Assembly: GCA_963828505.1 (NCBI GenBank)
Contig: CAWHFM010000009.1
Coordinates: 180,872-244,871, forward strand
From: an uncultured Acidimicrobiaceae bacterium
Lineage (GTDB): Bacteria > Actinomycetota > Acidimicrobiia > Acidimicrobiales > RAAP-2
Reading direction: 5' to 3'
DNA: 64,000 nucleotides
The position numbers were made by a program, and so were the translations under genes. The notes under the pieces were generated by a model. It ran no database searches, was not told where the DNA came from, and saw nothing but the letters and a program-made list of their open reading frames with translations. Shown one piece after another: positions 3,288 to 14,058 of this stretch (position 1 is its first letter; the number at the start of each line of letters is the position of its first letter).

Positions 3288-4340
3288 TTACGGCTGGGGC
3301 TGGTTCCACTCGATCCAGCCGGCGCCGTTCCGGCCGTCGTCGGCGCGGTATCGAACCAACGCCCTCGGGAATCGACTCGTGCGGCCGTCCTCGTCCCGGA
3401 GCAGCACCGGGCCATACGCCAGGGGCTCGACGTCGATCCCGAGCTCGAGCGGTTCCGACTCGTTGCCATCGGGGTTCGTCATGTCCATGGCCGTCAGCTC
3501 GATCCGGGCGACCGTCGGGAAACCGACGGGGCCGAGGTCCTCGGTGACAGACAGCGACGTGATCGTGTGCACAAGCGACCGGCCCTCAGGAGTCGGTGTC
3601 TGCACGTAGCCGAAGAAGGCCGGCGAGCCGGGGATGCGGATGTCGGCGAGATGGATCCGGGTGCCGTCGTCCAGACGAGCCGACGACCAGCACCAACCGA
3701 AGGCCCACCAATCGCGGACGCCCCAGGAGTGGTCGCGTTGTCCTTGCCCGTTGACGTCGAGCGTGTGATCACCGAGCGTCACGGTGCCCGCCACCGTGCA
3801 CGGGATCTCGTACCGAGTGGTGAGGACGTAGTGGTACGGCGTGCCGGCGGTCGTCCAGGTCAGGTCGAGGCTGGCCGACGTCGGTTCCCACCCGGTGTCC
3901 GAATAGGCATCTTCGGGGCGGGAGAACTGTTTGGCCTGCATCCGGGGCACGCGCAGGCGGAATTCCTCGAGCGGCCGCACGATCTCGATCTCAACGTCCG
4001 CGACATCGGAGCTCGACGCGAGGCCGTTCCCGTCCGGGACCGGAGCGGCATAGTCAACACAGCAGGTGCCGCCTGACCCGGGGATCACCAGCCAGGCCGT
4101 CCACCAGGCGACCTGGCGATTCGGGTAGAGGCCGAGTCGCAACCAACCTCCCCACAGATCGCCGGTCGCGTCGGCGGAGGTGGGGGTGCGGGTAGTGGTG
4201 GTGGAGGTGGGGGAGAGTCGAGACGGGCCAGGATCGGCCGACTGGACGAAGTCGCAGTAGTACGACTCGTTCCAGAGCTCGGCGTCGTCGGGCGGGTGCC
4301 GGGCCTCGTCGGATGGGTCGACGACGTGGGCCGCCGTCAC
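3288..4340 (-). CDS. conserved hypothetical protein (WNESYY / GQRDHSWG motifs)
   Basis: 350-aa ORF. Its GTG start overlaps the upstream stop (GTGA). The motifs resemble actinobacterial conserved hypotheticals. Contains a Thr/Ser-rich low-complexity insert. Confidence 0.6.
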   Translation of the reverse strand: MTAAHVVDPSDEARHPPDDAELWNESYYCDFVQSADPGPSRLSPTSTTTTRTPTSADATGDLWGGWLRLGLYPNRQVAWWTAWLVIPGSGGTCCVDYAAPVPDGNGLASSSDVADVEIEIVRPLEEFRLRVPRMQAKQFSRPEDAYSDTGWEPTSASLDLTWTTAGTPYHYVLTTRYEIPCTVAGTVTLGDHTLDVNGQGQRDHSWGVRDWWAFGWCWSSARLDDGTRIHLADIRIPGSPAFFGYVQTPTPEGRSLVHTITSLSVTEDLGPVGFPTVARIELTAMDMTNPDGNESEPLELGIDVEPLAYGPVLLRDEDGRTSRFPRALVRYRADDGRNGAGWIEWNQPQP

Positions 4341-4976
4341 CGGGCCGGTCCGGGTTCCATGGCGGTCGCGCCCGGAGGGCCGGCGATCTCGACGATGGGA
4401 TCGTCGCGGTCGTCGAACTCGGTTCGCAGGGCTCGGGACATGACAGCGTGCTGAAAGTAGAGGGTCGTGATGTAGGTGAGCTCCAGCAGCGCTTCGTCAT
4501 GGAGGTGACGTCTCAGCTCCGCGAAGAGCTCGTCGGGTACCCGGCCGTGGCCGTACACGAGGCAATCGGTGTAGGCGAGAACGGCGCGCTCGGCCCGGCT
4601 GTAGGTTCCGTCCGGGGCGACGGACCAGGCGGGAATGTGCGTGATCTTCTCCTCGGGCATGCCGAGCCCGCGCATGGACTTGGCGTGCTGGGAGAACACG
4701 AACTGGCTCCCGGCGGCCCAACCGGCGCGGATCTGGCCGAGCTCGCGCAATTTCGGGATCGAGGACCCGGGTGGGGGACTGGTACAAGCCGAATCCCTTG
4801 ACGCAGTGCTCCAGGATCTCGGGGCTCAGGGCGAAGACGGTCCACCAGTCGCCCGTAGTCCCATCCCAGCGACCTGGCTCGGCAACGGGGTCACGGCCCT
4901 CGAAGAGCCATTCGTACATGGTGGTCACGATGGGCGCGGTGGCCTCGTCCTTGGGGACCTGGCGGAGTCGGGGCAT
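4337..4976 (-). CDS. carboxymuconolactone decarboxylase (AhpD-like) family protein, reading frame broken near 4750
   Basis: The N-terminal part (ORF 4497..4976) ends ...RVLDPEI. The continuation RELGQIRAGWAAGSQFVFSQH... lies in ORF 4337..4750, one frame away. Removing one base in gaaattgcgc restores LDPEIRELGQIR. Confidence 0.6.
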
Positions 4977-5033
4977 CGGCGTGGTCTCGGTGTCGTGTGA
5001 GGGGGGTTGGCGGTGACGGTGGAGTTCGAGGGA

Positions 5034-5678
5034 TCAGACCGGACTGGGGGAAACGGGTTCGGACAGGTCGATCGGTTCGATGGTTTCGTCCTGATCCGAG
5101 CCCGTCGCGTCGCCGGGGCCGCTCGAGAAAGCGCGAGACGCCGCCCGAGCGGGGGAGTGCGTGACGTCGGTGTGGTCGAAGTCTCGCATCCAGCAGGCGA
5201 ACTCCAAGAGGATGCCGTCGGGATCTTGGAAGTAGATGCTCCGGACGTAGACCCCCGAGTGCATCTCGTCGCTGATACCCCACTCGGAGTCGTCGTGGTT
5301 GGCGATCTCGGTGCAGTCGATCCCGGCGGCAATGAGCCGATCCCGGTACTCCTCGATCTTCTCGGGTGCAACGTCGAAGGCGACATGGTTCATGGATCCG
5401 ATGGCGCTGGTCAGGTCGCCCTGGTCGGGCCGGGCTGCCGGTGCGCTCACGCCGGGCACGCCGTCCGGAGCGTTCGGGAACCAGAAGAAGGCGAGGCAGT
5501 CGCCGCCGCCGCAGTCGAAGAAGAAGTGTTGTCCCATGCCCGCGGGCAGCTCGATCGTCTTGACGAGCGGCATGCCGAGGACGTTGGTGTAGAAGTCGAC
5601 GGTCACTTCCATATCCCGGCAGACCAGTGCCAGGTGGTTGATCCCCCGCAACTCGAACCGCTTCGTTCCGCTGGACAT
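5034..5678 (-). CDS. VOC (glyoxalase/dioxygenase fold) family protein
   Basis: INHLALVCRDMEVTVDFYTNVLGM and MNHVAFDV motifs. ATG 5678 is preceded by GGGGAGGG SD. Acidic, Pro-rich C-terminal tail. Confidence 0.8.
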   Translation of the reverse strand: MSSGTKRFELRGINHLALVCRDMEVTVDFYTNVLGMPLVKTIELPAGMGQHFFFDCGGGDCLAFFWFPNAPDGVPGVSAPAARPDQGDLTSAIGSMNHVAFDVAPEKIEEYRDRLIAAGIDCTEIANHDDSEWGISDEMHSGVYVRSIYFQDPDGILLEFACWMRDFDHTDVTHSPARAASRAFSSGPGDATGSDQDETIEPIDLSEPVSPSPV

Positions 5679-6001
5679 CTGGCCCTCCCCGCTGTTCTGT
5701 CGCCCCATGCCGCCAAGCGGCCGGCGCTCCGGCTGCATCGGGCCTCTTCGCCCATCGGGCTGCTCGCCACCAGAGGATACGCCTCGACAGAGCTCGGACG
5801 ACGGGTCGTCGGACCTGGTGCGGCGGAGCGCGGGCAGCGCCGTCGAGCGCACTACGGTTGCCCTTGCCCAATCCACGAGGGAGTGGCGACAGATCTGCAC
5901 TCTCGACAGACCGAGATGGGGGCCGCAACGCCGATGACGACGCCGTTGGTGACGCCGAAGGCCGCGGCGAGGAGTGCGGCGTGACCACAGGCAAGCGGCG
6001 G

Positions 6002-6433
6002 ATGGACACGGACGCCGGGTTCAGGTTCCTCAACCGGGTTCACAAGAGCGTCCTGCGCGTGACCGGCGGGCGCTGGCCCACGACCCTGTCGGGCATGGCC
6101 GCAGTGGAACTCCACACCGTCGGCCGCACGTCGGGGCTGCCCCGCTCGTCGATGCTGACATCGCCCATCCACGACGAGTCGCGGGTGATCCTGGTGGCTT
6201 CCAAGGGCGGGAACGAACGAAATCCGCTGTGGTACGGCAACCTCAGGGCGAATCCAGACGTCGAGGTCACCATGAACGGGAGGACCCGTGCCATGCGAGC
6301 CCGCACCGCCTCACCAGAGGAGAAGGCCCGGATGTGGCCACAGATCGTCGCTACGTACAAGAACTACGCCCGGTACCAGGAGGATTCGGGACGGGACCTT
6401 CCGGTGGTGATCTGCGAGCCCAGGCCTTCGTGA
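6002..6433 (+). CDS. deazaflavin (F420H2)-dependent nitroreductase family protein (DDN-like)
   Basis: Typical pattern: FNRxHxxVLRxTGGR, GRTSG..R, ASKGGxxRNPxWYxNL, PEEKARMWPQ. Confidence 0.8.
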   Translation: MDTDAGFRFLNRVHKSVLRVTGGRWPTTLSGMAAVELHTVGRTSGLPRSSMLTSPIHDESRVILVASKGGNERNPLWYGNLRANPDVEVTMNGRTRAMRARTASPEEKARMWPQIVATYKNYARYQEDSGRDLPVVICEPRPS

Positions 6434-6563
6434 GCCGGGTCCACAGGGGCCGGCAAGATCCGCCGGGGCCGGATGGGTCAGGTGGTCGCGGACGGACCGG
6501 CCGGGCGACAGCCGAATCCTCCGACGGGGGCGGGGTCGGGGCAGGGACGAAGGTGACGGTACG

Positions 6564-6986
6564 ATGCCGCCAATGTCGATGGAACCAGGTGGGTCCGGGG
6601 GCGACGCGCTCGATCTGAGCATGGCCGTCTCGCAGCTGTCGTCCAACAGCACCGATCTGCGCATCATGCTCAAGCTTCTCGTCTCCCAGCTCTCTGACGC
6701 TTTGGGCGACCGCATAACGGTCGACCGGGCCGGCAGGTTTCGCAAATCCGACGAGATCAAGAACGTACGGATCGTTCTGGGCGACGACACCCTCGAAGCT
6801 GCCGTCGACGGTGGCTCGGTGCGCTGTAGCGTCGGCCACTCCTCGGGAGGGATCCGCATCCGCAGCGAACAAGTGTCGATGGACGCGTGGCTCACCCGCC
6901 TCCTGTCCACGCTTCAGTCCGAGGCCGCGCACAGCGAGCAGACTCGGCAGGCGCTCGAGAACATCATGATCGGAGGTACGTCGTGA
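6564..6986 (+). CDS. hypothetical protein, first gene of the YbjQ-paralog operon
   Basis: 140-aa ORF with GC3-rich codons. Its stop overlaps the GTG of the next gene (GTGA). No recognisable domain. Confidence 0.6.
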   Translation: MPPMSMEPGGSGGDALDLSMAVSQLSSNSTDLRIMLKLLVSQLSDALGDRITVDRAGRFRKSDEIKNVRIVLGDDTLEAAVDGGSVRCSVGHSSGGIRIRSEQVSMDAWLTRLLSTLQSEAAHSEQTRQALENIMIGGTS

Positions 6987-7858
6987 GCGACGTCCAGCCC
7001 TCGTCTCAACCCGGACCCAGCCCCGTGGACGGCGCGGCCCGAGTCGGCCCCGATGCTCAGGCGCCGAGTCCACCCAGCGACCTTCCCAAGGACGCCGCCC
7101 ATCGACTCGAGGAGCTCGAACACGGCCTGTTCACTTCGGACCTGTCCGTGAACGAGTTCCTCCTCGTCAAGGAGGCAGGTTTCCACCCGCTCGGATTCGT
7201 GATGGGCTCGTCCATCTACCACATAGGCATTCAGACGCGGCGGTGGGGGGAGAGCCAGGAGCTGAGCAAACTGACCGAGGCCATGTACACGGCCCGTGAG
7301 CTCGCCATGGGCCGGATGGACGAAGAGGCGGAGGAACTTGGCGCCGATGGGGTCGTCGGCGTGCGGCTCGACGTCAACTACTACGAGTGGGGCAACGACT
7401 CGGCCGAGTTCATCGCCTTCGGTACCGCGGTGAAGGCCGAGGACGGGACGTCGTACCGCAACGCGCTGGGCAAGCCGTTCACCTCGGATCTGTCGGGGCA
7501 GGATTTCTGGACCCTGATGCAGACAGGCCACGTGCCCCTCGGCCTGGTGATGGGCACCTGCGTGTTCCATATTGCGCACCGCAAACTCACCCAGGCTCTC
7601 GGTTCCATGGGTCAGAACGTGGAGCTGCCCAACTTCACCCAAGCGCTCTACGAAGCCCGGGAACTGGCTATGACCCGGATGCAGGACGAGGCGGGCCGGC
7701 TTGGCGCGAGCGGCATCGTGGGAGTGCGCTTGGAGGAGAAGTCGCATCAGTGGGGTTCACACACGATTGAGTTCCTCGCGCTGGGGACAGCGGTGGCCAA
7801 GGGGAGCGGCGAAGTGACGCTGCCCAAGCCGACGACGATCATCTCGCTCGACAACTGA
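6983..7858 (+). CDS. tandem double YbjQ/UPF0145 (DUF74) domain protein, paralog 1
   Basis: GTG 6983 lies 6 nt after GGAGG. Two modules, each with SDLSxxEF/DF ... GVVGVR/GIVGVR ... GTAV. Confidence 0.7.
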   Translation: MSDVQPSSQPGPSPVDGAARVGPDAQAPSPPSDLPKDAAHRLEELEHGLFTSDLSVNEFLLVKEAGFHPLGFVMGSSIYHIGIQTRRWGESQELSKLTEAMYTARELAMGRMDEEAEELGADGVVGVRLDVNYYEWGNDSAEFIAFGTAVKAEDGTSYRNALGKPFTSDLSGQDFWTLMQTGHVPLGLVMGTCVFHIAHRKLTQALGSMGQNVELPNFTQALYEARELAMTRMQDEAGRLGASGIVGVRLEEKSHQWGSHTIEFLALGTAVAKGSGEVTLPKPTTIISLDN

Positions 7859-7915
7859 TGCGGTTCTCTTGTTCGCTCTGCGTGTGATGTCCGTCACGCT
7901 CGCTCGGCGGGTCGG

Positions 7916-8926
7916 GTGATGCCCGAGGGTCCCGGTCCAGGTGGTCCCGGCCCGAGCCCGACCGGCGACACCGGCGACATCGGCGGTCCGAGCCCGGCCG
8001 AAGGCGCCACGGTCCCGCGACCGGCCGAAGCCTCGGACCTGCCCGAAGCCGCCCTGCGCCGGCTCGGATCGAGCGCCTTCTCCTCGGGACTCAGCGTGCC
8101 GGACTTCGCGGCATGCCTCGACCTCGGGCTGGAGCCGGTCGCGCTCGTGCAGGGCTTCTGCGTCATGCAATGGGGCTGGTACGGCCCGGGCTCTGGATTC
8201 GGTCGGGGCCGCTCGCCCTACGTCGGGGCCGGAGGCGCACAGGCGCCGGGTTCCTATTCCGAGATCTACCGCTGCCCCCACGGATACGTCTCGGCCGAGC
8301 ACCGGATGTGGGGCCAGAACCTCGAACAGCCGTGGGTCGAAGAAGCCTGGTCGGGCGGATACACGGCCGCCTACACCCGCATGCTCGAAGAAGCCCAGAC
8401 CCACGGTGCTCACGGCATCGTCGGGGTCGTGGACAAGGTTTCGAACATCGCCGACACGGGGACGACCGAGTTCCACTTCCTCGGTACCGCCGTGATGGTC
8501 GAAGGTGGTCCACCCCCCGCATCGGGCGTGCCCTGGAGCACGTACCTGGCCGGCCAGCGGTTGATCAAGTCCATCGAGGCCGGGTTCATGCCCGTCGCCG
8601 TGGTCGCCGCCCTGGCCTCGGTCCGGGTCTGGGCGTACTGCATGACCGAGTACCTGATGGAGGGTTCGTCGGCGTGGGGCGTGGCCCGCCCGCAGATCGT
8701 CGAGCAGGTGAGCCGAGCGCACATGGCCGTACGGCAGTTGGCCCGCAAGCAGGTCCGCCAGCAGCTGTCGGGCGACCAACTCCACGGGGCCCGCATCGAC
8801 GTCGTGACCCGTGAGCTGTCGCAAGGTGACGAGGTCATCGACTGCACCTTGCGGGGCAACCGAGTCCGCCGGTTCAAGAACTACGACGAGGTGCCGCTCC
8901 CGACGCCGACGGTGCGACTCGGATGA
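7916..8926 (+). CDS. tandem double YbjQ/UPF0145-like domain protein, paralog 2 (divergent, with insertion)
   Basis: Pro/Gly-rich N-terminus. Module 1 (SGLSVPDF ... GIVGVV ... GTAV) is split by a roughly 60-aa insert. Module 2 is degenerate. Start is GTG 7916 or ATG 7919. Confidence 0.6.
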   Translation: MMPEGPGPGGPGPSPTGDTGDIGGPSPAEGATVPRPAEASDLPEAALRRLGSSAFSSGLSVPDFAACLDLGLEPVALVQGFCVMQWGWYGPGSGFGRGRSPYVGAGGAQAPGSYSEIYRCPHGYVSAEHRMWGQNLEQPWVEEAWSGGYTAAYTRMLEEAQTHGAHGIVGVVDKVSNIADTGTTEFHFLGTAVMVEGGPPPASGVPWSTYLAGQRLIKSIEAGFMPVAVVAALASVRVWAYCMTEYLMEGSSAWGVARPQIVEQVSRAHMAVRQLARKQVRQQLSGDQLHGARIDVVTRELSQGDEVIDCTLRGNRVRRFKNYDEVPLPTPTVRLG

Positions 8927-9905
8927 CCCCCGAACCCGACACCCCCACTTCACCGCCACCCCTCGGAACCCGCCCCGAATCCTCGGCTCCCGATCTACGG
9001 GCCGAGATGATCAGAGGTGCGTCGGCGATCGCTGTCCCAGCTCCTCCGACATCGCCGCAATCCCGGGGTATCACCTCAGACCTCTCCGTCGACGAGAGCC
9101 TCCTCCTGCACGCCGCCGGATGGGAGCCGCTGGACCTCGTCCCCGGCGTCGCCGTGGTCTCGGTGCCCGTCGGGGTGTGGAATTGGGGCGTCGGCAGCAT
9201 CAGCCTCGCCTCGGACGCGCACAATGCCGCGGTCGGCGCGGCGGCAGAGCAGCTCCGCTCCGAATGCAGCAAGGTCCACGGTCACGGCGTGGTCGGGGTC
9301 CGGGTCGAGGTCGACGTGCGCCCACACCACATCGACGTGGAGCTGATCGGCACGGCGATCCGCCCGATCGCCCGCGCCGCCGCCGCGGCACCGGCACCGG
9401 CGCTACCAGTGGCGTCCGACGGAGGGGGGACGACGCGGCTGAGGCGATGCCGTTCATTTCGGACCTGTCGGCGCGCGATTTCACTCTGCTCCAGCGCGCC
9501 GGGTGGATACCTGTCGGCCTCGCCTTCGGCGCCAGCTTCATCTACTCGCCACGCCGGTCCGCCGGCGCGGCCATGCGACAGAGCACACAGAACGTCGAGC
9601 TCACCAACTACACCGAAGCCATGTACTCGGCCCGGGAGGCGGCCATGGAGAAGATGCAGCGCTCGGCCCTGGAGGCAGGCGGCCAGGGCGTGGTGGGAGT
9701 CAAGGTCACCGAGGGCCCCATGGGCTTCGCCCGCCATGCCGTCGGGTTCACCGCGTGGGGAACCGCGGTTCGCCTGGTGGCCGAGGCGCACCAGTTCGTG
9801 GCGCCGAAGCTCGTCCTCCCCCTCGACGACGCCGTCGTGACCTTCGAGGCTGAGAGCCTGCGCAGCGCGACCCAGGGTCGAGGCCGAGGTTCGGGCCGCC
9901 GGTGA
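8923..9905 (+). CDS. tandem double YbjQ/UPF0145 domain protein, paralog 3, frame broken at G-run 9424-9429
   Basis: ATG overlaps the paralog 2 stop (ATGA). Module 1 is in the frame of ORF 8923. Module 2 (MPFISDLSARDF ... GVVGVK ... GTAV) is in the frame of ORF 8811..9905. Adding one G restores ...SDGGGDDAAEAMPFISDLS. Confidence 0.6.
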
Positions 9906-10318
9906 CCGACGGCTCCCCAACGGCCATGCAGATGGACTGGCCCGCCTGGGGGCGCAGGTTCGAGTCGGTGCACGGCCCTGATGAATTCGCGGGCCTGTTC
10001 GCGGCGGGCGGTACTTTCCGCGATCCCGTGACGCCGGACACCACCGACGTGCGGAAGGTGGCCCGCGACACCGACGCTATCTTCCCGGATTGGTCTCAGA
10101 CGGTCGATCGGATTCGCGGAGGATCCGACTGGGCCGTGTTCGAATGGACCGGGACGGGCACGCTCGACGCCGGCGACGGCCGGACGGCTCGGATCGTCAT
10201 GCAGGGTGCAACCGTGATTCAGGTCGACAGCGAGGGGAAGGTCACCCGCTGGCGCGATTACCTCGACACGAACGAGCCGGCGCAGCAGATCCGGAAGGCC
10301 CTCGAGGACGGCTCATAA
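9902..10318 (+). CDS. SnoaL-like / NTF2-fold protein
   Basis: 138-aa ORF. GTG overlaps the upstream stop (GTGA); ATG 9926 is an alternative start. The pattern ...FRDPV...W...VFEWTGTGT...G... is typical of SnoaL-like polyketide cyclase-fold proteins. Confidence 0.6.
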   Translation: MTDGSPTAMQMDWPAWGRRFESVHGPDEFAGLFAAGGTFRDPVTPDTTDVRKVARDTDAIFPDWSQTVDRIRGGSDWAVFEWTGTGTLDAGDGRTARIVMQGATVIQVDSEGKVTRWRDYLDTNEPAQQIRKALEDGS

Positions 10319-10418: not shown

Positions 10419-10802
10419 TCAACCGTCGTCCCGGCAGAGGCAGAAGGGGTGGCCGGCGGGGTCGAGGAGGACACGGACGTTTTCTTGTGGTTGGTGCGAC
10501 GCAACCGTCGCTCCGAGGGCGACCGCCTCGGCGACGGCCGATTCGAGGTCGCCGACCTGGAAGTCGAAGTGCATCATCTGGCGCTGTGCGCCCTCTCGGG
10601 GCGGCCATACCGGGGTCTGGTAATCAGTCGATGTTTGGAAAACGATGAAGATGGGACCGTCGGGCGCCGCCAGTATCGATGTTCCCGGCTCTTGGTGGCC
10701 GATGGGCCAGCCCAACAGCTCCGAATAGAAACCGGCCAAGGCGGCAGGGTCCGGCGCTTCGATGGCGGTTCCCCACCACATGCCGGTCGTTCGGGATCGC
10801 AT
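10419..10802 (-). CDS. VOC family protein
   Basis: DPAALAGFYSELLGW and HFDFQVGDLESAVAEAVALGA motifs. Confidence 0.75.
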   Translation of the reverse strand: MRSRTTGMWWGTAIEAPDPAALAGFYSELLGWPIGHQEPGTSILAAPDGPIFIVFQTSTDYQTPVWPPREGAQRQMMHFDFQVGDLESAVAEAVALGATVASHQPQENVRVLLDPAGHPFCLCRDDG

Positions 10803-10903
10803 CCCCAGGAGTGTGTCACACGCGACGGGAGGCGCCGTGTGGCCGAGTGACCTCGGCCGAGACCGGTGGTGACGGACCGCGACTCACGGCGCGTCGGACC
10901 GGT

Positions 10904-11989
10904 TCACTCCGCCGAATCGGCCACCGCCTGCACGTGGGCCAGACGGGCGTCGCGGACCTCGTCGTATTCCTCCGCGGCCTTCTCGTCCGACGCCATCTCT
11001 GCGTCGATGTCAGCGTCGGCGAAGCCGATCACGCCCATCGACTCGAAGGCCGAGCGCAGCCGGGGTCCCCAAAGCCCGATGTCGCGCAAGATGGGCACGA
11101 TGCGCATGAACAAGAAGGAACGGAACACCCGTAGCGTCTCGCTGTTCTCGACGTAGGTCCCGATCTCAGAGGGAAGGTCGAGCCGTTCCCACACTTCCTC
11201 GCCCAAGAAACGATCCCGCATGAGGTAGCACGCCTCGATGCAGAACGCCTCACGTTCGTCGCGCTCGGCCTGGCTCAGCTGCGGGTAGTAGTCGCGTAAC
11301 GCCAGACGCCCGAACATCACGTGCCGCGCCTCGTCCTGCATCACGTACGCATTCAAGGCCTTGGCCAACGGCTCTGTCGCGTTGTTGCGGATGACGCCGA
11401 ACGCAGCCAGTGCCAGTCCCTCGACCAGCACCTGCATGCCCAGATACGTCATATCCCACCGACTGTCGGCGATGACGTCGTCCAGCAGGCTCTTGAGGTA
11501 TTGGTTGAGGGGATAGACGAGCTGCACCTTCTCGTGGAGGTAGCGGCTGTACACCTCGACATGGCGCGCCTCGTCGATCACCTGCGTGGCGGCGTAGAAC
11601 TTCGAGTCGATGTCCGGCACCGTCTGCACGATCTTGGCCGTGCAGATGAGCGCTCCCTGCTCCCCGTGCATGAACTGGCTGAACCTCCACGCCTCGACGT
11701 GGCGCCGCAGCTCGCCTTTGCGCTCGTCCGACATCTTCTCCCACCAGTCGGTTCCGAAGAGCGGGTTCATCTCGTCGGGCATGCCCACCGGGTTCGTGAG
11801 ATCGACCTCCTGGCTCCAGTCGAGCCGGTCGCTGCCGATCCACTGTCGCCGCGTCCCTCTGTCGTAGAGGCGGAGGAGCTGGTCCCGCCCGCCGGTGTAG
11901 TCGAAGTCGAAGACCGTCGTGGCGGGCGACTCGATGCCCCACCGAGTGTCGGGTGCAAGCTCCCGGTCGATCGTCGGGTTGGTCGTCAT
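10904..11989 (-). CDS. AurF-like ferritin-fold diiron oxygenase family protein
   Basis: ATG 11989 (MTTNPTIDRE). Paired ExxH motifs (DEARHVEVY, QDEARHVMF) plus a conserved HGEQGA helix. The longer 533-aa ORF extension looks non-coding. Confidence 0.7.
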   Translation of the reverse strand: MTTNPTIDRELAPDTRWGIESPATTVFDFDYTGGRDQLLRLYDRGTRRQWIGSDRLDWSQEVDLTNPVGMPDEMNPLFGTDWWEKMSDERKGELRRHVEAWRFSQFMHGEQGALICTAKIVQTVPDIDSKFYAATQVIDEARHVEVYSRYLHEKVQLVYPLNQYLKSLLDDVIADSRWDMTYLGMQVLVEGLALAAFGVIRNNATEPLAKALNAYVMQDEARHVMFGRLALRDYYPQLSQAERDEREAFCIEACYLMRDRFLGEEVWERLDLPSEIGTYVENSETLRVFRSFLFMRIVPILRDIGLWGPRLRSAFESMGVIGFADADIDAEMASDEKAAEEYDEVRDARLAHVQAVADSAE

Positions 11990-12081
11990 GAGGGCCCCTT
12001 CAGGATCGTGATCGGACGGGGCGAAACTACACCCGGTCGAGGGGACCATTCCGAGGGAGTGTCCCCGCTCGGCGGCCGGCG

Positions 12082-13314
12082 TCAGCGAAAGTCGAACGCC
12101 ACCTTTATGGCGCCGCTCTGCTCCTGGTCGGCCAGGACGGTGAATGCCTCGCGCCACTGGTCGAGCCGAAAGGTGTGGGTCAGCATCCCGGTGAGGTCGA
12201 CCCGGTGTTGCTCGGCCAGACGGAGGTAGTGCTCGATGCCGTGCAGGCGGATGCCGTCGACCTCCTCGACCCCGAACACGTTGGAGCCCACCCACGAGAT
12301 CTCCTTGAAATAGAGCGGCGACCACTCCCAGCGTTCGGGCGCGTGGACACCACTCTTGACCATGGTTCCCCGTGCCTTGAGCAACCGGACCCCTATTTCG
12401 GCCGTCTGACCGGTGCCCACGGTGTCGTAGACGACGTCGATACCACCGGGGTGGGCCATCGGCAGGGGGTTGTCCCCGAAACGCTGGAGGACTCCTCCGG
12501 ACCACGCCGCGGCCGTCTGGAGCAGCTGCTCCACCGGAAACGGATCGACCACGGTCGCGCCCAACCGCTCGGCCAGTGCCTTCTGCGCCGGAAAGCGGGC
12601 CGCCACCAAGATCTCGACGTCAGGGTGGAGTGCTCGGAGAATGGCCGTCGCCGTGCTGCCGAGTGCGCCACCGCCGTAGACGAACACCTTGCCGCCGGGC
12701 GGCGGTGGGTGCCTCGTGACCGAGTGCAGGGAGACCGCAAAGGGATCGGCGATGACCGCCACTTCGTCGCTGACGCTCTCCGGCACCGCGATCAGCATGG
12801 ATTCGTGGGCCGGGAGGTACTCGGCAAAGCCGCCGGGAGCATCCTTGGACGTCCCCGTGTGGATGCCGGCGGCGATCGGACCCTCGGTGAAGTGCCAGCA
12901 GAGGCTGTAGTCGCCCGCCTGACACGACGGGCAGGGCGGGTCGATGCCGCGGGGTCCGCACGAGAGCCACGGGTTGAGGACGACACGTTGGCCCACGTGG
13001 AGCGTGCTGACGCCGTCACCGATTTCGACCACGTCGCCGACGACCTCGTGCCCGAACACGGTGGGGAAGGAGAAATAGCCGTTCAGCGCGCTGTCGCCGA
13101 AGTCGTCACCGAAGTCCATGAAGACCATTTTGGCGTCGGACCCGCAGATACCCGTCAGGCGCGTCTTCACGACCGCCCAATCGTCCCGGAGCAGGGCCGG
13201 TCGCTCCAGCTCTTCGAGCCGCATCGGAGTCTTCGAGAGGCCGATGAGCAGCTGGTTGGTTCGATCTGGAGCGTCCCAGCGCTCTGGACGAACTCCGTAG
13301 AGGAGGCCCTGCAC
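12082..13314 (-). CDS. zinc-dependent alcohol dehydrogenase (MDR) family protein
   Basis: GICGSD, GHEVVGDVVEIG, Cys-rich structural-zinc loop (CPSCQAGDYSLC) and GGGALG Rossmann motif. Confidence 0.8.
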   Translation of the reverse strand: MQGLLYGVRPERWDAPDRTNQLLIGLSKTPMRLEELERPALLRDDWAVVKTRLTGICGSDAKMVFMDFGDDFGDSALNGYFSFPTVFGHEVVGDVVEIGDGVSTLHVGQRVVLNPWLSCGPRGIDPPCPSCQAGDYSLCWHFTEGPIAAGIHTGTSKDAPGGFAEYLPAHESMLIAVPESVSDEVAVIADPFAVSLHSVTRHPPPPGGKVFVYGGGALGSTATAILRALHPDVEILVAARFPAQKALAERLGATVVDPFPVEQLLQTAAAWSGGVLQRFGDNPLPMAHPGGIDVVYDTVGTGQTAEIGVRLLKARGTMVKSGVHAPERWEWSPLYFKEISWVGSNVFGVEEVDGIRLHGIEHYLRLAEQHRVDLTGMLTHTFRLDQWREAFTVLADQEQSGAIKVAFDFR

Positions 13315-13323
13315 CGCAGCCTC

Positions 13324-13935
13324 CTACGAACCCAGCGGCGTCATCGTCGAGGCAAGGAACCCGACGACGCCGCCGTTGTCGTGGTGGTGTGCGCCACGCA
13401 CGGCGAAGATGGTGATCACGAGCGCGATTGATACGAAGCCGATGATGATGCCGGCGAGGGCGAGACCGTCACCTTTCTGAGCGCCCTGGGAGCGCCGGAT
13501 TTGGGACCTGGCGATGAAGCCGAAAATTATGCCGAGAATCCCAAGGAGGGCGAAGAGCAGACCGACACACGAGCAGATCAGCGACGCCACCGCCAGCCCG
13601 TTGTTCTTGACGCTGGGTGATGGTCCGCCGTAGCCACTTGACGAGTATGGGTACGGCGGTTGACCCGCCTGGCCCAGGTACGCCTCAGGAGTCCCTCCGT
13701 AGACGGTCCCGGCACTGGGATAGGGCGGGATGCCGCCGCCGGGTTGCGCTTGCGTCGCGTCCGAGGGCGAAGGTTGTGCCGCGTGTCCCGGCTCCACGGG
13801 TTGGTTCGCCGGCGCCGGTTCTGGGCTGCCAAATCCCGTCGGCCCGGTTTGGGGCGGGCCGGTCCAGAGCTCAGGTGGGTACCACTTGCCGTCGGACGCC
13901 AGCCACCATCCCGGGCCTTGTGAGGTGTCGCTCAT
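13324..13935 (-). CDS. DUF2510/DUF4190-type membrane protein
   Basis: N-terminal [16 protein letters not shown] motif, a Pro/Gly/Tyr-rich linker and two C-terminal TM helices typical of DUF4190. Confidence 0.65.
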
Positions 13936-14058
13936 GGCGTCATCGCCCCCAGTCCCTTCCGAGTGCACCCGTGCGCCTGGCCGAGCTTACGGGCACCACC
14001 GGCGGCGTGTCGGTGACCGCGGGGGGATCGGCGCCTCGCCACGAGAGCAGACGCGACA

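Follow-up and report, generated by a model that had tools for sequence, protein, structure and literature searches.

In a 64,000-nucleotide (nt) stretch of DNA from an uncultured Acidimicrobiaceae bacterium, referred to below as the window and used for all position numbers, reading frames on the plus strand fill positions 6564-10318 with five genes, here called A to E, three of which encode proteins built from two copies of the YbjQ (UPF0145) domain. Genes A (6564-6986; 140 amino acids (aa)), B (6983-7858; 291 aa, with a GTG start), C (7916-8926; 336 aa) and E (9902-10318; 138 aa) are intact open reading frames (ORFs) that encode, in this order, a small partner protein, a tandem YbjQ/UPF0145 protein, a divergent tandem-YbjQ paralogue and a SnoaL/NTF2-like protein. 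Between C and E lies gene D. Its first module (D1; 8923-9370) follows the frame set by the ATG at 8923, and its second (D2; 9409-9905) the frame that terminates at 9905. The two are joined by a GC-rich, low-complexity linker in which the frame changes (9371-9408).

The genes are packed end to end. The start codon of B overlaps the stop codon of A in a GTGA at 6983-6986, the start of D overlaps the stop of C in an ATGA at 8923-8926, and a GTGA at 9902-9905 contains both the stop codon of the D2 frame and the start codon of E. A gap of 57 nt lies between B and C in the window, so these two genes do not overlap; the earliest codon from which C could start is a GTG at 7916, with an ATG next at 7919. 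The third-position G+C content was 0.82-0.87 in genes A, B, C and E and in both modules of D (0.83 for D1 and 0.87 for D2), and the long minus-strand ORFs, which have an atypical third-position G+C, were set down as high-GC shadows. A first-pass annotation had given A, B, C and E as ORFs joined by these GTGA, ATGA and GTGA overlaps; the sequence confirmed those coordinates, and all of the peptides quoted there were found in the window translations. The annotation had also described Pro/Gly-rich N-terminal extensions on B, C and D, the lengths of which differ among orthologues and depend on the start codon chosen. The tightly packed A-B-C-D(-E) operon is real, and its first description was partly right.

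YbjQ modules in the B, C and D proteins

B, C and D had each been annotated as a fused pair of YbjQ modules, six in all. When scored against the Pfam YbjQ_1 family (PF01906; gathering score 23 bits) B gave 90.4 bits over two stretches and the D2 frame gave 35.2 bits, C only reached the threshold (23.3 bits in one stretch), and the D1 frame gave no match. Alignments of the single modules were then built from about 80 orthologues and compared pairwise by hhalign. By this measure modules B1, B2, C1, D1 and D2 match one another as homologues with probabilities of 90-99.8% (98% for C1 with B1, 98.4% for D1 with B1 and 99.7% for D2 with B2). The best PDB matches of the D1 profile were the UPF0145 structures 2gtc and 1vr4, but with an E value of 0.3. 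A single-sequence search of the PDB with B found no YbjQ match. The second module of C was the outlier. Its hhalign match to B2 was weak (E value 0.003-0.05), with a score of 22 compared with a mean of 11.7 and a maximum of 17.9 for shuffled comparisons, and its profile retrieved no YbjQ chain from the PDB. By profile comparison five modules are demonstrably YbjQ-like and C2 is plausibly a degenerate YbjQ copy. Hence, five of the six modules first proposed stand and C2 is a weak candidate, and the prediction that the half-proteins would score against PF01906 held for B and D2, was borderline for C and failed for D1.

The products of B, C and D, at about 260-340 aa, each consist of two modules in tandem and differ in this from the solitary single-domain chains of about 105 aa typical of YbjQ. 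They share an extra C-terminal strand of pattern P-x-T-x-[IV]-[IL]-x-L-[DG], which is also found in X, a paralogue that other lineages encode and that is described below. C had been called divergent and insert-bearing, and indeed its first module contains an insert of about 45-60 aa with an invariant C-P-H-G...H-R-x-W-G-Q-N; among 55 orthologues the invariant cysteine and histidine residues of C1 are C67, C82, C120, H122 and H129. Homologues of B number more than 8000 and those of C about 1041.

The frame change in gene D

D had been taken to be one ORF (8923-9905), a reading that missed a frameshift: no ORF spans these positions, and D1 and D2 sit in different frames. The frame that begins at 8923 continues to 9840 with a composition that looks non-coding. 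Alignment by blastn with the closest relative, locus L005 (88% DNA identity), showed 26 extra bases in the D linker of the window, and the frame change was therefore placed at about 9371-9408. This linker is a GC-rich (GCC)n/CACCGG repeat. D is uninterrupted in L004 (312 aa), L005 and L001 and is encoded in a single frame in most of 84 loci, whereas other related loci, from metagenome-assembled genomes (MAGs), have frameshifts scattered through B, C or D. Because the relatives keep an intact D, the lesion most likely arose through misassembly or through recent mutation.

A programmed frameshift in D was ruled out by the single-frame relatives, the 26-nt linker indel relative to L005 and the scattered nature of the MAG frameshifts. 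The G6 run at 9424-9429 was ruled out as a shift site, as it is in frame with both D2 and L005 and the shift lies upstream, at 9371-9408. An in-frame ATG is found at 9447, just 5' of the SDLS motif of D2, and a split D could in principle still give a single-domain product from this codon. A second apparent anomaly, a 403-aa 'A-B fusion' in L004 (8001-9212; protein P0004, with similar matches of 386-421 aa), is an artefact in which A, frameshifted towards its C-terminal end, runs into the frame upstream of B.

The small partner A and gene E

Gene A had been annotated as lacking a recognizable domain, and we found no Pfam match at an E value of 0.1 or below. Its 1094 homologues (clustered at 90% identity) include none that is named and none with a Pfam domain. 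An exhaustive profile search (E value of 1e-3 or below) gave a family of 328 clusters at 50% identity, some of which came from Solirubrobacteraceae MAGs. The AlphaFold2 (AF2) model of A, with a predicted local distance difference test (pLDDT) score of 73.5, has two helices, a five-stranded meander and two further helices (alpha-alpha-beta5-alpha-alpha), and no PDB entry matched this fold with a template modelling (TM) score above 0.35. The family has no conserved catalytic-looking residues, and thus A would suit an adaptor or structural role.

The only Pfam family to recur in the A family was DUF5073 (PF16817), which gave sub-threshold matches in 6 of 111 representatives (best E value 2.5e-4); no other Pfam family appeared in more than two representatives. 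In a planned test the A-family profile was run against the PDB, and 2k3m_A ranked third of 177,635 sequences (E value 0.57) with a sensible alignment. A single-sequence PDB search with a Streptomyces A homologue gave no match to Rv1761c, the protein of that entry. From these sub-threshold matches the A family (about 130 aa) appears to be distantly related to DUF5073 without being a member of it.

The annotation of E as SnoaL-like was upheld by a match of 37.9 bits to SnoaL_2 (PF12680; gathering score 27 bits) over residues 24-117.

Conservation among Acidimicrobiales

The closest named relatives of the window are Acidimicrobiales and Acidimicrobiaceae MAGs. Scanning one genome per species gave 230 matches, from which 80 Acidimicrobiales loci were returned; nearly all of these 80 have the order DDN-A-B-C-D-SnoaL, in which DDN is a gene of the F420H2-dependent quinone reductase family that lies upstream of A. 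The junctions are kept as well. The genes overlap by 4 nt at A/B in 69 of 78 loci, at C/D in 58 of 73 loci and at D/E in 41 of 62 loci, and by 1 nt at B/C in 56 of 72 related loci, the one junction at which the window has a gap. A is preceded by the DDN gene in 81 of the 84 related loci, and these all belong to one syntenic clade. However, the whole neighbourhood is conserved in this clade, and thus conservation there says little about function.

Three loci of another Acidimicrobiales-type lineage (L001-L003) keep A-B-C-D within wholly different flanks. These loci have no DDN gene and no SnoaL gene after D, and in L001 a luciferase-like monooxygenase gene neighbours the operon. The SnoaL gene is also missing from the Solirubrobacteraceae-like and Streptomyces loci described next. 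SnoaL and DDN are clade-specific additions that lie outside the conserved core, and the SnoaL gene could not be retained in the conserved block to which it had been assigned.

Linkage through rearrangements and evolutionary rates

Beyond the Acidimicrobiales the genes stay together in altered orders. About 40 Solirubrobacteraceae-like metagenome loci, retrieved with an A protein of the Solirubrobacteraceae type, have the order A'-X-B, where A' is about 28-30% identical to A and X is a divergent tandem-YbjQ paralogue, a single X being present where the window has C and D. Two Streptomyces linear plasmids have the order X-B-A, with the A homologue overlapping the end of B; these homologues matched the A-family hidden Markov model with E values of 6e-35 and 6e-33. 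A decayed pair is found on the cyanobacterial conjugative plasmid AP018309 of Aulosira laxa (L167, 3538-4561), where a stop codon breaks up the B-like tandem-YbjQ gene that comes after a truncated A-family ORF (E value 4.5e-15). This decaying copy outside the Actinomycetota suggests horizontal transfer.

Over at least three actinobacterial classes the A family keeps with a B orthologue and mostly also with a divergent tandem-YbjQ paralogue. Linkage that survives changes of gene order is strong evidence of a functional unit. The expectation that homologues would be co-localized was borne out by A-family genes adjoining tandem-YbjQ genes in three gene orders plus the decayed pair, and the block proposed to be conserved across Actinomycetota survives as A with tandem YbjQ genes but not as a fixed A-B-C-D-SnoaL order.

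The partners have diverged at very different rates. B is 86% identical in L001, 63% in the Solirubrobacteraceae-like loci and 57-58% in Streptomyces, and the corresponding values for A are 53%, 28% and 26%; C and D are about 60% identical in the nearest outgroup. Judged from these identities, B is evolving much more slowly than its partners. The families of A and C are of matched abundance, with about 1094 and 1041 clusters, respectively, at 90% identity.

In one Solirubrobacteraceae-like locus (L141, 8221-10715) a gene for an AbiEii-type AAA_21 ATPase and a gene with an RNA ligase domain lie directly downstream of B. These may be an inserted defence-type island that is not conserved in the other loci.

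The start of gene A and the flanking genes

An AGGTGA resembling a Shine-Dalgarno (SD) sequence precedes the ATG at 6564. A block, GGTACGATGCG-CC-ATGTC-ATGGAGCC, at the start of A (6550-6585) is kept in at least 80% of 67 related loci, and the remainder of the spacer between DDN and A is variable among them. The block could consist of the SD-like AGGTG plus the conserved N-terminal codons for MRPMSMEP. Alternatively, its TACGAT could be the -10 element for a leaderless start at 6573, a start that was considered since GGTACGATG is conserved. We favoured the ATG at 6564 over 6573 because of third-position variation in the MRP/MPP codons and the SD-like AGGTG. Searches of the upstream region gave no riboswitch or other known RNA at an E value of 1 or below, and neither a sigma-70 promoter nor an intrinsic terminator was found.

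The DDN gene of the window occupies 5858-6433 of the plus strand, and its family was assigned by a PF04075 match on the L004 orthologue. It is the last gene of an upstream flank (3288-6433) composed of DUF7064, CMD, glyoxalase/VOC and DDN genes. The downstream flank (10419-13968) encodes a second glyoxalase-like protein, an AurF-like di-iron protein, a zinc alcohol dehydrogenase and a DUF4190 protein. Most of the 80 related species share the synteny of these flanking genes, except for the downstream glyoxalase-like gene, which was found in one locus.

Discussion

Gene content, the homology of the five modules, the conserved junctions and the linkage through rearrangements argue that A-B-C-D, with E in the present clade, which we read as one expression unit, is very probably a single functional unit. 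A further step, and our preferred reading, is that the products work together as subunits of one cytoplasmic protein assembly, a point on which the evidence from sequence leaves us evenly balanced. Coupled translation, the similar cluster counts of A and C, the asymmetric divergence and the linkage of A would all fit subunits of one assembly, and a co-translated hetero-assembly of the kind proposed in the first-pass annotation is plausible. In such an assembly B, the very strongly constrained tandem YbjQ protein, would be the core. C and D (or the one X elsewhere) would be diverged tandem-YbjQ copies that add specialized surfaces, such as the Cys/His insert of C1, and A would be a non-YbjQ alpha/beta adaptor. 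The overlapping stop and start codons would give coupled, near-stoichiometric synthesis. As single-domain YbjQ proteins form pentameric rings, a tandem chain could bridge two rings and build larger oligomers. Complex formation, its stoichiometry and any physiological role are what we infer from these features, and the only hint of a role comes from the M. tuberculosis protein Rv1762c, which sediments with large particles and a transposon mutant of which is, according to a preprint, mildly sensitive to acid and peroxide.

Several findings weigh against a hetero-assembly. Equal amounts of three tandem proteins have no simple mapping onto five-fold rings, and lineages having only X and B imply that possession of both C and D is not essential. 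Most of the Acidimicrobiales loci belong to one syntenic clade and hence are not independent observations. The AF2 model of C is poor (pLDDT 49 overall and below 50 for C2), the link between A and DUF5073 lies below threshold, and the orthology of Rv1762c and B draws on literature descriptions, length and one 20-aa peptide.

The simplest competing explanation is that the genes are merely co-regulated: B, C and D would have arisen by tandem duplication and form separate homo-oligomers, A would be an unrelated co-expressed protein and there would be no hetero-complex. Paralogues derived from local duplication stay adjacent by default, and Acinetobacter keeps two adjacent single-domain YbjQ genes without a known partner. 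Duplication inertia nevertheless fails to explain why the linkage of A, B and a paralogue survives three gene orders across classes, start/stop overlaps are kept at every junction, and the asymmetric divergence with family-specific invariant features fits subfunctionalized subunits. We consider co-regulation without a complex unlikely, although it carries appreciable weight. A role in binding, storing or buffering a metal or small ligand (selenium, a flavin or a deazaflavin species), which would be compatible with an assembly, seems improbable to us. The DDN and luciferase-like monooxygenase families, which are commonly F420-linked, neighbour the operon here and in L001, respectively, but such neighbours are not retained in other clades, and F420-type genes are very numerous in Actinomycetota; the F420 link was set aside on these grounds. 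The ligand proposal can also call on the invariant C67, C82, C120, H122 and H129 of C1, on a fold class shared with a pentameric archaeal selenium-binding protein (PMC4092069) and on the Pfam and PGAP names 'putative heavy-metal-binding'. However, the literature yields no experiment behind the family name, a conserved Cys/His cluster is missing from B, which is the best-conserved member, and the conserved core contains no transporter, metallochaperone or metal-responsive regulator.

The operon might instead supply B-type proteins as cargo or accessories of encapsulin nanocompartments. The C-terminal strand that B, C, D and X have in common might serve as a docking tail, but it differs from the known targeting-peptide consensus and lacks the G-S-L-[KR] core of family-1 peptides. 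The association itself comes from Rv1762c, which was consistently found in M. tuberculosis nanocompartment preparations (PMC8635971). The preprint of that work reported moderate H2O2 sensitivity at pH 4.5 for an Rv1762c transposon mutant, as for encapsulin-system mutants, but this phenotype was dropped from the published version (PMC8635971). Moreover, co-sedimentation is by itself no proof of encapsulation, and no encapsulin, Linocin_M18 or DyP gene was found in L001-L004, in the scanned L141 genes or in the annotated Streptomyces loci. We regard the cargo proposal as quite improbable. Still less credible, and to our minds very improbable, is a mobile toxin-antitoxin or anti-phage defence module, an idea to which the plasmid copies in Streptomyces and cyanobacteria and the pairing of a small protein with larger ones lend some colour. 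None of the six proteins matched a PADLOC-DB family at an E value of 0.1 or below, and B, at 57-86% identity across classes and with a chromosomal setting that is stable in about 80 species, shows a pattern opposite to that of patchy, fast-evolving defence islands.

A bolder form of the hetero-assembly, one that we hold improbable, is that tandem YbjQ chains and the A adaptor form a large self-organizing particle or lattice, a nanostructure that has escaped recognition and is so far found mainly in Actinomycetota. If true, this would explain both the pelleting of Rv1762c with 25-nm encapsulin particles and the conservation of B, which is at the level of a structural protein. In any case, no function is known for the widespread YbjQ/UPF0145 family, members of which have solved structures, and the operon turns a domain label into a defined multi-gene set: a constrained B, one or two paralogues and a partner of about 130 aa. 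These form a concrete protein set for co-expression and offer a reason for the presence of Rv1762c in nanocompartment preparations. If confirmed, a hetero-assembly would give the first functional handle on the YbjQ family; otherwise this is an ordinary conserved operon.

Relation to known systems

The domains of the operon belong to known families that lack a characterized function, and our search of the literature found no paper that assigns one to YbjQ. YjbQ (UPF0047) we take to be an unrelated protein to which the thiamin phosphate synthase result belongs, and that role was set aside for YbjQ as a mix-up of the two names, a trap for annotators. The activity has been credited to 'YbjQ' in print (PMC7084401). 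The structures 1vr4, 2gtc and 1y2i are homopentamers of solitary chains of about 105 aa (PMC4092069). The five modules share with these proteins a helix followed by the G-[IV]-V-G-V...G-T-A-V strands, to which they add an N-terminal SDLS-x-x-EF helix, loop inserts and an extra C-terminal strand. In the window the domain is duplicated within each chain, triplicated as paralogous genes and tied to a non-YbjQ partner. The dodecin-like, DUF1471 and archaeal selenium-binding domains have the same beta-alpha-beta-beta fold class and form oligomers that are often pentameric (PMC4092069), but the likeness is at the level of the fold and no sequence relationship was found. Two YbjQ-family genes are adjacent across Acinetobacter species, downstream of adeIJK (PMC10132057), which suggests that paired YbjQ units recur. 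However, these are single-domain proteins about 30% identical to B, from another phylum and context and with no known A-family partner.

The system that comes nearest is found in mycobacteria. The searchable literature gave no description of tandem-YbjQ paralogues with a DUF5073-like partner across actinobacterial classes, and the first-pass annotation had called the system one without a match. That claim falls with M. tuberculosis Rv1762c, a two-domain YbjQ protein that lies beside the DUF5073 protein Rv1761c (PMC9846648, PMC11449866); the pair has been touched experimentally (PMC8635971). Rv1762c (789 bp, 262 aa) was described as having two putative heavy-metal-binding (YbjQ/DUF74) domains (PMC9846648), and its length is that of the B core. 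A 20-aa peptide of Rv1762c, EHLEFMAVGTAVRYTAKPGA at residue 111 (PMC5320590), corresponds in position to the end of module 1 of B, EF-x-A-x-GTAV. Rv1761c, a DUF5073 protein of 127 aa, is the protein of nuclear magnetic resonance entry 2K3M and is listed as a membrane protein (PMC6151718), whereas inspection of A by eye showed no obvious hydrophobic transmembrane stretch. In M. bovis consecutive genes encode DUF5073, heavy-metal-binding and hypothetical proteins (PMC11449866), an order compatible with the X-B-A of Streptomyces. The pair lies in the RD152 region, and adjoining DUF5073-like and two-domain YbjQ genes are common to the window and to M. tuberculosis and M. bovis. Hence, compared by their descriptions, Rv1762c-Rv1761c is the probable mycobacterial counterpart of B-A. 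The window differs from this pair in its A-B-C-D arrangement, in its SnoaL gene and in encoding C and D, both divergent paralogues.

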